A stretch of 64,000 nucleotides of DNA from a virus (IMGVR_UViG_3300042892_003815:64001-128000); one strand, 5' to 3'; positions 16,994 to 61,016 are shown, counted from the first letter of the stretch. Made by a program: numbers and translations. Notes: a model not told the origin generated them from the letters alone.

Positions 16994-18406
16994 ATGACAA
17001 AAGAAGAGAAGAAACAAAAAATAGAAGAACTGAAAATACAAGCAGTACAATTAAAAAAAGATGTTGAATACTATAATGCAATGCAGACCGCACTAAAATT
17101 GGTATTAAACGGATCCTACGGTGCTTTTGCAACTGCTTACTTCATATTATATAATAATCACGTAGCAGGTACAATCACAGCACAAGGTCGTGACCTTACC
17201 AAAACAATGGATAGAGTGAATGAAGACTATTGGTATAACCAATGGCATCTTGACTTTGAAGTACATGATAAAGTAGGAATAACTAATGTTACCCAAATTG
17301 ATAAAAATGAACCTGTAAGTATTTACGCTGATACCGATTCATTATTTGTATCATTTAAACCAGCAATTGACCATTGTACCTGGGAAAATCTAATTTTAAA
17401 AGATATTGACTCTATAGATAAAAAGTTTATCGTCCTTTCAAAAGATAAGATAAAATATAATAATACAAATTGTGTTGCTATTGTTCATTCAGTTGATGAG
17501 TTAAAGGATACAATTTGTAATGCGTATGACTTATTAGTATTTGATGGACACTTTATTAAAGATAGAAATCTTAGTAAGTTGATAAGTGATGGTGTTTTCA
17601 CATCTGAAATTAAATGGAACTGGACAAGTGAATTGGATTTAATTCAAGGTTTAGATCATTTTAGATATGGTGGATACTTCAAAATGTGTTTAGAGAATTA
17701 CGCAGCATCATTTGGTGTAGAGAATAAAGAAGATTTTGAGTTAGAAAAGATTTCTGAATCAATTATCAACATTGCTAAAAAGAAATATATTCAGCATATT
17801 GTACATGAGGATGGGATTGACTTTGATCCGATGAGTTATATATTCCCTAAGGGAGTTGAACTTGTAAGATCATCAACACCTTTATTTGCTCGAGATAAGA
17901 TTGTCGATATTGTAAGATATTTATTTTCTAATCCAGATACATTCAACATTAAAGAATTATTAAAATTAGTTAAAAATTTAAGAAAAGAATTTGAATTAGC
18001 GGATATTGATGATATAGCAATGCAATCTTCTTGTTCTAACTATGATGCTAAGATTATTGATGATAAGACTTTACCTCTAAGATATGTAAATGGTGCTCAC
18101 TTCGCAGTAAAGGCCGCTGCTTATCATAATTACTTATTAAATTTAGATAGAGCTGCACAACAAAAATATGAATTTATTAAATCTGGTACAAAGATTAAGT
18201 ATTATGTTTGTAAGGATAAAACTGTAAATGATCAGTTTGCTTATATGAGAGGTTCATATCCTCATGAGTTCGCTCCAGCGATAGATTATGATGAACAGTT
18301 CGCTAAAGCTATACTTTCTCCAATCAATTCAATTATTGAACCATTAGGTTTGCCTGAAATAACTAAAAGATTGTCGGTCGTAATGGACATCTTCGGTGGT
18401 TTCTAA
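16994..18406 (+). CDS. family B DNA polymerase, C-terminal subunit (gp43B-like)
   Basis: ALKLVLNGSYGAF (region III), YADTDSLF (motif C), KKKY, KGVELVRSSTP; lacks exonuclease and motif A; start set at MTKEE, downstream of the promoter-like element. Confidence 0.9.
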   Translation: MTKEEKKQKIEELKIQAVQLKKDVEYYNAMQTALKLVLNGSYGAFATAYFILYNNHVAGTITAQGRDLTKTMDRVNEDYWYNQWHLDFEVHDKVGITNVTQIDKNEPVSIYADTDSLFVSFKPAIDHCTWENLILKDIDSIDKKFIVLSKDKIKYNNTNCVAIVHSVDELKDTICNAYDLLVFDGHFIKDRNLSKLISDGVFTSEIKWNWTSELDLIQGLDHFRYGGYFKMCLENYAASFGVENKEDFELEKISESIINIAKKKYIQHIVHEDGIDFDPMSYIFPKGVELVRSSTPLFARDKIVDIVRYLFSNPDTFNIKELLKLVKNLRKEFELADIDDIAMQSSCSNYDAKIIDDKTLPLRYVNGAHFAVKAAAYHNYLLNLDRAAQQKYEFIKSGTKIKYYVCKDKTVNDQFAYMRGSYPHEFAPAIDYDEQFAKAILSPINSIIEPLGLPEITKRLSVVMDIFGGF

Positions 18407-18407
18407 T

Positions 18408-18442
18408 AAAAAAATCCTCTCAATTTGAGAGGATTTTTTTTT
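18408..18442. terminator. bidirectional terminator
   Basis: AAAAAAATCCTCTCA-ATT-TGAGAGGATTTTTTT. Confidence 0.85.
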
Positions 18443-19169
18443 ATGTTTTTGCTACGACTTTATCTTCTTGGAATGTAAAGAAGTTTCCTTCTATTACAAC
18501 ATCTTTACCTTTTACAATTATAAATGATTGGCCTTTATAAACGATTAGGTAGTCTGTATTCAACGATAATGATCCTTGTGAGTGAACTTTAACCTTTCTT
18601 GTTGATTCGCTAATAACAGCTCTATCATAAGGTTTAACTTGAATAGTTACTTCTTTACCTAACCAAATAAATTTTCCATCGATTCCAGAAATATCTTCTT
18701 CAACTGTTGGTGGAATAAAATTTACTGATATTCCTTTCTTTTCTTGTAAAGATTGTTTAAAAAATCTTAGAGAATTTTGTTCCCCTACATTTCCTCTTCT
18801 GGAAGTACTTATTAAGACAGGTAAAGTGATACGTTTAAAATATTTACCTTTCCAGTGATATACATCACTCATACTATTAGTCATAAAATGATAAAATGCT
18901 TCTTCTGTTCTAATAAAGTTTTCTCTAATAATTGCTTTAAATACGGTATAGTTATTTACCATTTTACTGATATACTCACTACTTATAATTTGTCCTTCGA
19001 TGTTCAAATCTTCATTTACACCATACTTAAACCCAAATGGTCCATATACTTCTTCAATATACTTTTTGATTTTGCCATTTAACCAATCTATTGAGTTAAA
19101 TTTACCATACTTCTGTGTTTTAATATTTCCTAATTTTAAAGAACTTTCGTTTAGTTTGATCCATTTCAT
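18441..19169 (-). CDS. putative PD-(D/E)xK nuclease with capsid-targeting-like leader
   Basis: MKWIKLNES leader; E...EEDISGIDGK...TIQVK pattern. Confidence 0.5.
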   Translation of the reverse strand: MKWIKLNESSLKLGNIKTQKYGKFNSIDWLNGKIKKYIEEVYGPFGFKYGVNEDLNIEGQIISSEYISKMVNNYTVFKAIIRENFIRTEEAFYHFMTNSMSDVYHWKGKYFKRITLPVLISTSRRGNVGEQNSLRFFKQSLQEKKGISVNFIPPTVEEDISGIDGKFIWLGKEVTIQVKPYDRAVISESTRKVKVHSQGSLSLNTDYLIVYKGQSFIIVKGKDVVIEGNFFTFQEDKVVAKT

Positions 19170-19200
19170 AATGTATATATAAAAAAAGAATATATAAAAT

Positions 19201-58972: not shown

Positions 58973-59376
58973 AATACTTCTTTATCTATCTTATCTAGTG
59001 AGTCAATTCCATTTTCGATAATTTTATCTAGAATATCATCTACTGAGGTATTATCTAATCGAAAATCGGTAAATAATTTTGGAGTAACTTCTTTAACTTC
59101 TGGATATATTTTTGCTATTTCACCAGAAATAACTTTATCAGTGACATCTGTTTTTGTAAATTCAAAGTATTTAGACAAAACTGCAGTTATTTTATCTACC
59201 TTATAATCAGGTAATCTAACAAAAATATCGTCATCATTTGTAAATCCTAAATATTCTACATCATCCTCATCTAAACAATTTGATAAATCTTCATATATAG
59301 GATGATTATCATTACTATCTATATCAAATTCTTTAACATTTTCACTAACTATCTTTAAAAAGTAAATCTTGTTCAT
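58951..59376 (-). CDS. hypothetical protein with DUF6576-like C-terminal helix
   Basis: VDDILDKIIENGIDSLDKIDKEVL. Confidence 0.65.
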   Translation of the reverse strand: MNKIYFLKIVSENVKEFDIDSNDNHPIYEDLSNCLDEDDVEYLGFTNDDDIFVRLPDYKVDKITAVLSKYFEFTKTDVTDKVISGEIAKIYPEVKEVTPKLFTDFRLDNTSVDDILDKIIENGIDSLDKIDKEVLKKSHSK

Positions 59377-59402
59377 ATGTGTTTATTTGTTTGTTTGTTT
59401 TA

Positions 59403-59433
59403 CAAATATACGAAAAATAATTTAAGTACCAAA
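59403..59433 (-). promoter_or_regulatory. Bacteroidota sigma70-type promoter (TTTG-N19-TATATTTG)
   Basis: Exact -33/-7 consensus with 19-nt spacer upstream of 59376. Confidence 0.75.
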
Positions 59434-59489
59434 CTAATCATAACTTTTTTCATAAAAAGATATATAAAATAAAAATAGACGGAAATAAC

Positions 59490-61016
59490 ATGCTGGTAGA
59501 AACACAATATTTAACAAATACAAAGAAATTAGTAGTAAGCTACGTAGATAAGTCGGGCGATATAAAGTTGAAGTATTACAACTGGGACACCCCAATGAAA
59601 TATGTATCTTGTGAAGATACAGATCCACAAAAACATGCCGAATTCAAGTCTTGGGACGGAAAATCAGTAAAACAAATCGAAGTAAATCATCCTGATAGAT
59701 ATGCAGTCTATGAGTTTTTAGATTCACTTCCAGAAAAAGAAAAAACAGAAATATTTGAGTTTAACTTACCAAAGATATTCTTTATAGATATTGAAACCGA
59801 AATCGTTGATGGTTTTCCAGAAGCCGCTGATATTAAAGATGCTGATGGAAATATCACAAAAGAAGGTGCTTGTACACAAGTTCTTTCTATATCAATAGTT
59901 TATGATGATAAGATTATACTTCTTGGTTTAAAAGACATGCCAGAAGATATGCAAAATAGAATTTGTGATAATACAAATAAATACTTTGAGAAATTTGGCA
60001 CAGAATATAAATTCAAATATGTTAAATATGACGATGAATTTGATATGCTTTATGCTTTCTTCAATAATATGATACCAAAGATGCCAATTTTAACTGGTTG
60101 GAACTTCTTAAACTATGACTGGGTTTACCTAGTAAATAGAAGTAGAAAAATATCTAAATGGGCAAATGGTAAAGAATATAAAATCGATCCAGCAGTTTCA
60201 TCACCACTAAAGAGAATAAATAAAATGTGGGGTACAGAATATGAAGTACCTGCACATAGAATGATCTTTGATTATATGCAATTATATGAAATCTGTGATA
60301 CTTCTATTAAAGTAAAAGAATCATCATCATTAGACTTTGTTGCCAATAAGTTGGTCGGGGTTGAAAAGATTAAGTACAATGGTTCACTACAAAAACTTTA
60401 TGAAGATGATTTTGAAACATTTATGTATTATAACGCAGTCGATTCCGTACTTGTGCAGAAAATACATGAGTCAAGAAATTATATCTCAATCATTTATGCG
60501 ATTTCATCATTGGCAAAAATTAGAATTGTCGATGTAGTGTCTCAAATGAATAACGCGTTAGGTTCACTTGCAATTACAGAAGGAGTTTTAAGAAATCGTT
60601 TTAGAGAGATGGATAACATTGTACTCTTCAAAGAAGATAGAGGAGATGGTGACTCTACAATTGCAGGTGGTTGGGTCAAAGATCCTATTGTAGGAATGAA
60701 TAGATGGGTAGTTATTTATGACTTTGCATCACTATATCCGACAACTCAAAGACAATTCTTTATTGCACCAGAAACATTTGTTGGAGTTCAAAATGAAAAG
60801 GATAAAGGTTTCTGTGATAATGGTAGACCTATTGATTTAGAGAAACATGTAGTCTGTGTAAATGGGGTAGTATTTGAGAAGAGATTATCACCAACACTTA
60901 GAATGCTCGAAGATGTGTATGCAGATAGAAAGTTTAACAAAAAGATTATGATGAATAAGAAGGATGAACTAAAAGCAGTAATGGATCAAATAAAAGAACT
61001 TGAAGCAGAGTTATAA
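59490..61016 (+). CDS. family B DNA polymerase, N-terminal subunit (3'-5' exonuclease + motif A; gp43A-like)
   Basis: FIDIETE (Exo I), TGWNFLNYD (Exo II), YNAVD (Exo III), GGWVKDP, YDFASLYP (motif A); ends after the first fingers helix. Confidence 0.9.
   Translation: MLVETQYLTNTKKLVVSYVDKSGDIKLKYYNWDTPMKYVSCEDTDPQKHAEFKSWDGKSVKQIEVNHPDRYAVYEFLDSLPEKEKTEIFEFNLPKIFFIDIETEIVDGFPEAADIKDADGNITKEGACTQVLSISIVYDDKIILLGLKDMPEDMQNRICDNTNKYFEKFGTEYKFKYVKYDDEFDMLYAFFNNMIPKMPILTGWNFLNYDWVYLVNRSRKISKWANGKEYKIDPAVSSPLKRINKMWGTEYEVPAHRMIFDYMQLYEICDTSIKVKESSSLDFVANKLVGVEKIKYNGSLQKLYEDDFETFMYYNAVDSVLVQKIHESRNYISIIYAISSLAKIRIVDVVSQMNNALGSLAITEGVLRNRFREMDNIVLFKEDRGDGDSTIAGGWVKDPIVGMNRWVVIYDFASLYPTTQRQFFIAPETFVGVQNEKDKGFCDNGRPIDLEKHVVCVNGVVFEKRLSPTLRMLEDVYADRKFNKKIMMNKKDELKAVMDQIKELEAEL

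Follow-up and report, generated by a model that had tools for sequence, protein, structure and literature searches.

Two unlinked genes probably encode a finger-tip-split family B DNA polymerase in a Mahaphage-type megaphage

Introduction

The question raised by a 64,000-nucleotide stretch of viral DNA (IMGVR_UViG_3300042892_003815:64001-128000; the whole stretch is referred to here as the window) is whether two half-length genes, lying far apart and in reverse order, together provide one family B DNA polymerase (PolB). The window corresponds to bases 64001-128000 of a linear 190,950-bp IMG/VR virus record, which is about 33% complete according to CheckV, such that two thirds of the genome are unseen. 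A first-pass annotation had described two open reading frames (ORFs) in the window as the halves of a PolB split at the tip of the fingers, and had proposed that they reassemble without a covalent link. Both ORFs were present as claimed, one (the N-half) carrying Exo I-III and motif A and the other (the C-half) motif C. The reported spacing of roughly 41 kb and the reverse order also held, as both halves are encoded on one strand, the C-half precedes the N-half, and 41,083 nt separate them (Table 1). In our assessment, the two ORFs very probably supply a Mahaphage-type megaphage of Bacteroidota with its replicative family B DNA polymerase in the form of two polypeptides.

Results

Two half-length proteins tile one polymerase

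Assignment of both ORFs to the polymerase family was based on Pfam (families PF03104 and PF00136, with a curated cut-off of 23 bits, which all scores exceeded) and on PHROG profiles. Specifically, the N-half matches DNA_pol_B_exo1 at 31.7 bits and positions 18-151 of the DNA_pol_B profile at 34.6 bits, and the C-half matches positions 140-237 and 266-367 of the latter profile at 73.1 bits. Against PHROG 262, a full-length polymerase family of 856 positions, the N-half covers positions 67-500 and the C-half positions 477-839 (E-values of 5e-66 and 1.5e-50 for the two halves), and the two pieces therefore tile one enzyme. The PHROGs also include half-length families (PHROG 2062, 502 positions; PHROG 1918, 382 positions), which means that split forms are already present in phage databases.

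The residues expected of a working polymerase are distributed over the two proteins. In the N-half these are D100 and E102 (Exo I), D210 (Exo II), Y314 and D318 (Exo III), D411, S414 and P417 (motif A), and R480. A 64-sequence alignment shows no variation at the exonuclease carboxylates D100, E102 and D210 or at Y314 and D318, and these residues align to the corresponding positions of RB69 gp43. In the C-half (470-residue numbering), the conserved positions are K35, N39, S41, Y42 and G43 (motif B), D113-T114-D115-S116 (motif C) and K262-K263-K264-Y265 (the KKRY motif). The N-half aligns with residues 113-434 of RB69 gp43 (E 1e-25) at a sequence identity of only about 20%, and its Rx3K motif falls on R482/K486 of that enzyme. 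The AlphaFold model of the N-half is confident throughout most of its length (mean predicted local distance difference test score, pLDDT, 91.3), and its top fold match is again RB69 gp43 (Foldseek E 9e-23, template modelling score 0.65). Its lowest-confidence part is the motif A segment (pLDDT 56-67), a feature of the model consistent with what would be expected if the palm needs the partner half.

With respect to the protein ends, the N-half terminates in KKDELKAVMDQIKELEAEL, followed by a TAA stop. The C-half ORF opens at 16976 (476 residues), and an internal ATG at 16994 gives a protein beginning MTKEEKKQK. The latter is the better start, because the aligned orthologues begin there, with a stop codon just upstream, and because the ATG at 16976 falls within a promoter-like spacer.

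Table 1. Coordinates of the two polymerase genes and associated features (window numbering unless a sequence is named)
Feature	Position	Strand	Remarks
PolB N-half gene	59490..61016	+	508 aa; N-terminal domain, 3'-5' exonuclease (Exo I-III), palm motif A, finger helix N with R480/K484
PolB C-half gene	16994..18406	+	470 aa; finger helix P with motif B, palm motif C, KKKY, thumb
First finger helix, C-terminal in N-half, 40 residues (468-507)	60891..61010	+	DSSP helix, pLDDT 87-96; ends free at the finger tip
Second finger helix, N-terminal in C-half, residues 3-38	17000..17107	+	DSSP; runs into K35-x3-N-G-S-Y-G
Insertion of about 100 residues after motif C (residues 121-220)	17366..17683	+	small alpha/beta domain predicted, pLDDT 76-94
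Promoter-like bipartite box, N-half (AACTT, 14-17 nt, TATAWH)	59442..59466	+	pattern match; ends 23 nt before ATG
Promoter-like box, C-half (AACTT, 15 nt, TATAAT)	16964..16989	+	pattern match; ends 4 nt before ATG 16994
Terminator hairpin and T-run, N-half	61014..61045	+	begins at stop codon; -16.7 kcal/mol, z -4.9, 0/200 shuffles as good
Terminator hairpin and T-run, C-half	18408..18440	+	directly 3' of stop; -17.4 kcal/mol, z -6.0
Terminator hairpin of upstream IF3-like gene	16911..16942	+	-14.3 kcal/mol, z -7.5; isolates C-half transcription unit
C-half pieces, Lak-A2	L018:2923-3735 and L018:4076-5065
C-half pieces, LR756500.1	L016:380-1150 and L016:2827-3780

The break lies at the finger tip

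In order to place the break, half pairs joined in a script were aligned with RB69 gp43, the intact 994-residue polymerase of the Flavobacterium phage MaF61, and 43A/43B of Aeromonas phage 44RR. This puts the break after the Rx3K motif of finger helix N (R480, K484) and before the Kx3NSxYG motif of finger helix P (K35), in the same inter-helix segment that is interrupted in 44RR. The alignment, together with published descriptions of the T4-like site (PMC3061061, PMC2988022), thus agrees with the first-pass placement at the tip of the fingers. The suggestion that reassembly would involve an extended coiled coil, on the other hand, had to be rejected. The conserved lysines are separated by 24 residues in the N-half plus 34 in the C-half, for a total of 58, compared with 55 in the intact polymerase P0010, 61 in MaF61 and 73 in RB69; judged from this count, the fingers are of normal T4-like length and not extended. 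P0010 is a single-chain PolB of 949 residues that is 45% identical to the N-half, so both split and unsplit states occur among fairly close relatives.

Both halves are maintained, and the split is widespread

Codon comparisons indicate that both halves are functional genes under strong purifying selection. Relative to the orthologues in LR745206 and LR756502, the ratio of nonsynonymous to synonymous substitution (dN/dS) is 0.05-0.11 for the N-half and 0.07-0.11 for the C-half, with synonymous sites near saturation in these comparisons. The closest records (Table 2) are manually curated huge phages from Al-Shayeb et al. 2020 (PMC7162821), where the 634-735 kb genomes together with Lak constitute the "Mahaphage" clade with Bacteroidetes hosts; the main text of that paper mentions neither the polymerase nor its split. 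The same finger-tip break was found in all seven genomes of Table 2, at 28-84% identity.

Table 2. Related phage genomes that share the finger-tip break
Record	Length	N-half identity	C-half identity	Distance between halves	Remarks
LR745206	634,780 bp	84%	72%	about 101 kb	opposite strands
LR756502	642,428 bp	82%	74%	about 132 kb	opposite strands
LR756504	636,363 bp	43%	45%	about 280 kb
LR756501	735,411 bp	41%	48%	about 116 kb	round the circle
LR756500	462,018 bp			about 13 kb	next-closest, with Prevotella Lak megaphages, whose N-halves are 28-29% identical
Lak-A2				about 220 kb
Lak-B5				about 6 kb

A broader view of the family came from an N-half search that was exhaustive over 1.84 billion cluster representatives. 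Among the 150 best matches (50%-identity clusters), 102 are 430-560 residues long and contain the N-half only, and 23 are full length (at least 750 residues). In the first 45 matches, whose tails were inspected, the half-length proteins end some 20-30 residues past Rx3K, in a charged helix. For the C-half, more than 120 clusters at 73-100% identity were recovered, and almost all of these are 399-490 residues long. The source annotation of the half clusters is simply "DNA polymerase elongation subunit (family B)". The split is the standard state in Mahaphage/Lak megaphages, and about two thirds of the 150 nearest clusters share it. A literature search found no paper on a PolB split in Lak or huge phages.

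The layout itself is reproduced in two independent IMG/VR contigs from other samples. In G001 (177,545 bp; N-half 98% identical) and G002 (150,390 bp; N-half 94% identical), the C-half again precedes the N-half without a change of strand, and the two are separated by 40,561 and 42,059 nt, respectively. As order and strand are shared and the gaps are similar, the arrangement is not a misassembly, a possibility that the first-pass annotation had asked to see checked through synteny. In other IMG/VR contigs, the halves are 88-170 kb apart and mostly on opposite strands. Gene-by-gene mapping against LR745206 showed the present record to be a mosaic in which blocks are inverted and translocated. 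The C-half belongs to a block (window 1236-50950) that matches LR745206 from 163438 down to 101554 in inverted orientation, and the N-half to a block (window 58193-71807) that matches LR745206 231845-242535; the local neighbours of each half are conserved there. Over the 100-250 kb region of LR745206.1, at least six co-linear blocks with rearranged order and orientation can be recognized in the record (G000), with proteins 60-85% identical, and some 7 kb at window 50950-58193 have no counterpart in the region compared.

Each half carries its own promoter-like box and terminator

Based on the predicted signals in Table 1, the two halves are independent, monocistronic genes, each with a promoter-like box and a hairpin terminator. 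Upstream of the N-half orthologues, the AACTT-N14-17-TATAWH box occurs in 27 of 49 distinct regions, compared with 0.9 expected from shuffles and a single match in the reverse-strand control, and in 26 of the 27 box-bearing regions it ends 16-31 nt before the ATG. For the C-half orthologues, our own reading of the upstream regions identified the box in 5 of 9 distinct cases. The precise AACTT-N15-TATAAT-N4-ATG layout at the C-half recurs in G001 and G002, and related C-half boxes are present in LR756502 and G030. This conservation just upstream of both genes supports the assignment of the two genes to a shared, minority promoter class, in line with the first-pass proposal of a common class. 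Since the same promoter-like box (AACTT-N15-16-TATAAW) precedes both halves, the two genes are probably expressed together. Moreover, the C-half mRNA may be leaderless or nearly so, because its TATAAT ends 4 nt before the ATG at 16994.

Other candidate promoter signals were examined and set aside. The 11-mer ATAACTTTTTT has one exact copy ahead of each half and no other in the window, but was not enriched when one mismatch was allowed (19 found, 16 expected), and the bipartite box was adopted instead. A scan with the sigma-70 consensus performed no better than on shuffled sequence. Separately, ATATATA is found within 100 nt upstream of 90 of the 182 genes in the 191-kb record, a tenfold excess over expectation, and probably forms the core of the phage's principal type of promoter.

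Discussion

Proposed assembly and comparison with known split polymerases

The best explanation for these observations, and one that we hold with considerable confidence, is an unlinked, finger-tip-split PolB whose halves would assemble non-covalently in a 1:1 ratio; complex formation, activity and co-expression are the inferred parts of this model. The polymerase site needs both motif A and motif C, and both are conserved, from which we infer that the two proteins work together. In the assembled enzyme, the exonuclease, the catalytic aspartate of motif A and finger helix N would come from the N-half, and the thumb, the paired catalytic aspartates of motif C and finger helix P with its motif B from the C-half. 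In single-chain PolB enzymes, the palm is composed of segments from both sides of the fingers. The interface of a finger-tip-split enzyme would consequently comprise two contacts, namely the two finger helices packed against each other in antiparallel fashion and a shared palm sheet completed by strands from each half.

The nearest precedent is the bicistronic gp43 (43A/43B) of the T4-like phages 44RR, 25, 31, 65 and 133 (Petrov et al., via PMC2988022, PMC3061061). As in the present case, this is a family B replicative polymerase made as two polypeptides, with the break at the finger tip and no intein, and the 43A and 43B proteins of phage 25 co-purify and polymerise (PMC2988022). The first-pass annotation had noted that split gp43 genes are normally neighbours. 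The literature agrees, placing them 2 bp to 3 kb apart and often separated by an untranslated spacer or a homing endonuclease, but the genes studied here depart from that pattern, being 41 kb apart and in reverse order, with distances of 6-280 kb and frequently opposite strands in the relatives. In further contrast to 43A/43B, the two genes have separate promoter-like boxes and terminators, and a search for homing-endonuclease remnants next to either half found none. Neighbouring genes considered as candidate remnants were rejected, as they had either no family match or polynucleotide-kinase-like, helicase, IF3 or DUF6576 matches. The split is also clade-wide and abundant here, and variable in order and orientation.

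Unlinked two-gene PolB enzymes are already known from Methanothermobacter and PhiKZ, but those are split in the palm. The PolB of the chimallivirus PhiKZ resembles ours in being a jumbo-phage enzyme encoded by two unlinked genes, DNAP-N (gp82) and DNAP-C (gp50), whose products form a stable 1:1 complex as seen by cryo-electron microscopy (PMC13648687). However, PhiKZ is split within a large palm insertion and its C subunit holds both finger helices (PMC13648687), whereas in the present enzyme helix N resides in the N-half and helix P in the C-half. The PhiKZ enzyme is further equipped with additional domains (palm insertion and little finger) and with a clamp-like partner, Rhc; insertions of this kind are missing from the enzyme studied here. 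The PolB of Methanothermobacter thermautotrophicus is likewise naturally encoded by two unlinked genes (85 kb apart) without an intein (cited in PMC3061061), yet it comes from an archaeon, and its break lies in the palm, about 83 residues further downstream than the finger-tip site. An engineered Pol B from Pyrococcus furiosus (Pfu), broken near the finger tip, associates stably in a 1:1 ratio and shows wild-type activity and kinetics, even when reconstituted from separately made fragments (PMC3061061), and the proposed mechanism is therefore feasible. That split differs in being artificial, bicistronic and translationally coupled, and in having the short finger tip of archaeal enzymes, with about 22 residues between the lysines versus 58 here. 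Finally, split-intein polymerases (cyanobacterial DnaE, and Lak/LR756500 at motif C) also come from separate and sometimes distant genes, but their pieces are ligated by trans-splicing and the junction studied here lacks intein parts.

Alternative explanations

A different way to obtain one enzyme from two such genes would be covalent joining after expression, through either a cryptic split intein or RNA trans-splicing, and the idea gains some credence from other members of the same phage clade, Lak-A2, Lak-B5 and LR756500, whose PolB contains a split intein at motif C. At the finger tip, however, Pfam returned no Intein_splicing or Hint match in either half, while the same library, as a positive control, detected the intein halves of these relatives. 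The residues at both ends, from K484 onward in the N-half and up to motif B in the C-half, all belong to finger helices with counterparts in the aligned intact enzymes, and thus leave no room for intein halves. An intein at this junction was rejected on both grounds, which bears out the first-pass statement that neither end carries intein motifs. An intron or trans-splicing RNA was rejected as well, given that Rfam at gathering thresholds found no intron or other RNA family in the 64-kb window, and the terminator of the N-half starts right at its stop codon. We consider covalent joining highly improbable. The same holds for the view that the halves are a decaying remnant, with replication left to the host enzyme or to a split minimal Pol III alpha of the kind described in group 2.2 jumbo phages (Iyer et al., PMC7824862). 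A second, split Pol III-like enzyme is indeed reported for the jumbo phage group that includes Lak-B8 (PMC7824862), and much of the present genome is unseen, but a remnant is difficult to reconcile with the low dN/dS values, with catalytic motifs that are all invariant across homologues, or with a split form kept from 28 to 98% identity across the clade. The first-pass annotation had named an intact polymerase or closer partner halves among the findings that would refute its proposal. Neither is present in the 190,950-bp record, and a whole-record PolB search of the complete LR745206 genome found no intact PolB, only the two halves.

It is also conceivable, if improbable, that the halves at least partly act alone, for example with the N-half as a free proofreading exonuclease, and that their assembly is conditional or regulated. 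The N-half is modelled confidently by itself, the genes are unlinked and in many relatives on opposite strands, and the C-half was not found in some long contigs. Against independent action, the polymerase site draws motif A and motif C from different halves and both are invariant, both genes carry the same promoter-like box, and known finger-tip splits give stable 1:1 complexes (PMC3061061). That the 41-kb reverse-order layout is merely an assembly artefact of the contig is scarcely credible. The record is indeed a mosaic relative to LR745206, with a block edge between the halves at window 50950-58193; nonetheless, order and strand are the same in G001 and G002 with closely similar gaps, and the halves are unlinked in every curated complete relative.

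Several observations weigh against a co-expressed, 1:1 finger-tip-split polymerase, which nevertheless is the reading we favor. The C-half was not found in four related contigs, three of which are 91-97% and one 84% complete by CheckV; this absence is weak evidence, because the contigs span 262-476 kb and the curated relatives about 630 kb. The promoter-like box was defined from sequence alone, and in its strict form it occurs 40 times in the 191-kb record where about 25 are expected, and at only about 12 gene starts (within 60 nt upstream, same strand). Furthermore, the model of the C-half is poor (pLDDT 55) and does not allow the interface to be judged.

Implications of an unlinked finger-tip split

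In the literature, gp43 split at the finger tip figures as an oddity of a handful of Aeromonas and Acinetobacter phages, in which the two genes are adjacent. Mahaphage/Lak megaphages have the largest phage genomes known, and the same break is standard there. Their halves can drift anywhere within a 0.5-0.7 Mb genome, such that close linkage is needless for a two-piece replicase. In practical terms, half-length "DNA polymerase" calls in such phages are real subunits, and marker trees built on PolB need both pieces. Natural split pairs could also be used for reconstitution and for work with nucleotide analogues. Mechanistically, there is nothing new in kind.

A more ambitious proposal is that the open finger tip is an adaptation rather than a tolerated scar, with the split kept for a functional reason throughout a very large radiation of Bacteroidota megaphages and their relatives, as the norm for this branch of phage PolB. 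We view this as rather unlikely. Under such a scheme, a free finger tip might alter nucleotide selectivity, the engineered Pfu split being altered in its selectivity for bulky gamma-phosphate substituents, or separate genes might allow assembly or the subunit ratio to be regulated.

The C-half model and an insertion after motif C

Beyond the finger helix, structural information on the C-half is limited. The helix spanning residues 3-38 has pLDDT values of 85/75 over its first 20 residues and low values beyond. Fold searches with the C-half model gave weak thumb matches alone (Z about 6), and a sequence search of the PDB returned nothing at E 0.001. The insertion after motif C (Table 1) is modelled with higher confidence. 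It has no Pfam family, and its fold matches are weak and CheY-like (Z up to 7.5, below a trustworthy level). This insertion is present in the phage studied here and its closest relatives, is absent from LR756504, and occupies the site where the Lak/LR756500 relatives carry their split intein.

A second break in relatives, and neighboring genes

A second break, caused by a split intein at DTD|S of motif C, divides the C-half of Lak-A2 (MK250019.1), Lak-B5 (pieces taken from sequence L019) and LR756500.1, and these three phages therefore encode PolB in three genes. The middle piece carries the intein N-part, with Ser as its first residue, right after DTD of motif C, and the last piece carries a C-part that ends in AHN or VHN and is followed by Ser. 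PF14890 matches both parts in the Lak-A2 and LR756500 pieces, and the intein-split C-half genes are 0.3-2 kb apart. Trans-splicing at motif C in these three phages would yield the same two polypeptides that are encoded directly in the window. No paper on a motif C split intein in these megaphages was found in a literature search. Two other contigs also gave C-half matches in two pieces, G008 at C1:106525-106785 and 108386-109462 (1.6 kb apart) and G031 as abutting pieces within C1:365417-366478, which points to more insertions of an intein, intron or endonuclease.

Regarding the surroundings of the two genes, a phage IF3 gene with both Pfam domains (16394-16927) lies directly upstream of the C-half, which is adjoined on its other side by a minus-strand gene (18441-19169) whose product begins MKWIKLNES. 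Genes for a ClpP protease (25076-25735) and a DEAD/ResIII helicase (26698-28311) are also found in the neighborhood. Perhaps by coincidence, small genes with a DUF6576 motif occur near both halves, at 19459-19932, about 1 kb downstream of the C-half, and at 58951-59376, where the gene is transcribed divergently from the promoter region of the N-half. Directly after the N-half is a gene for an XPD/Rad3-like helicase (61367-63034; DEAD_2 and Helicase_C_2, PHROG 2488), and the pairing of this helicase with the N-half is conserved in LR745206.

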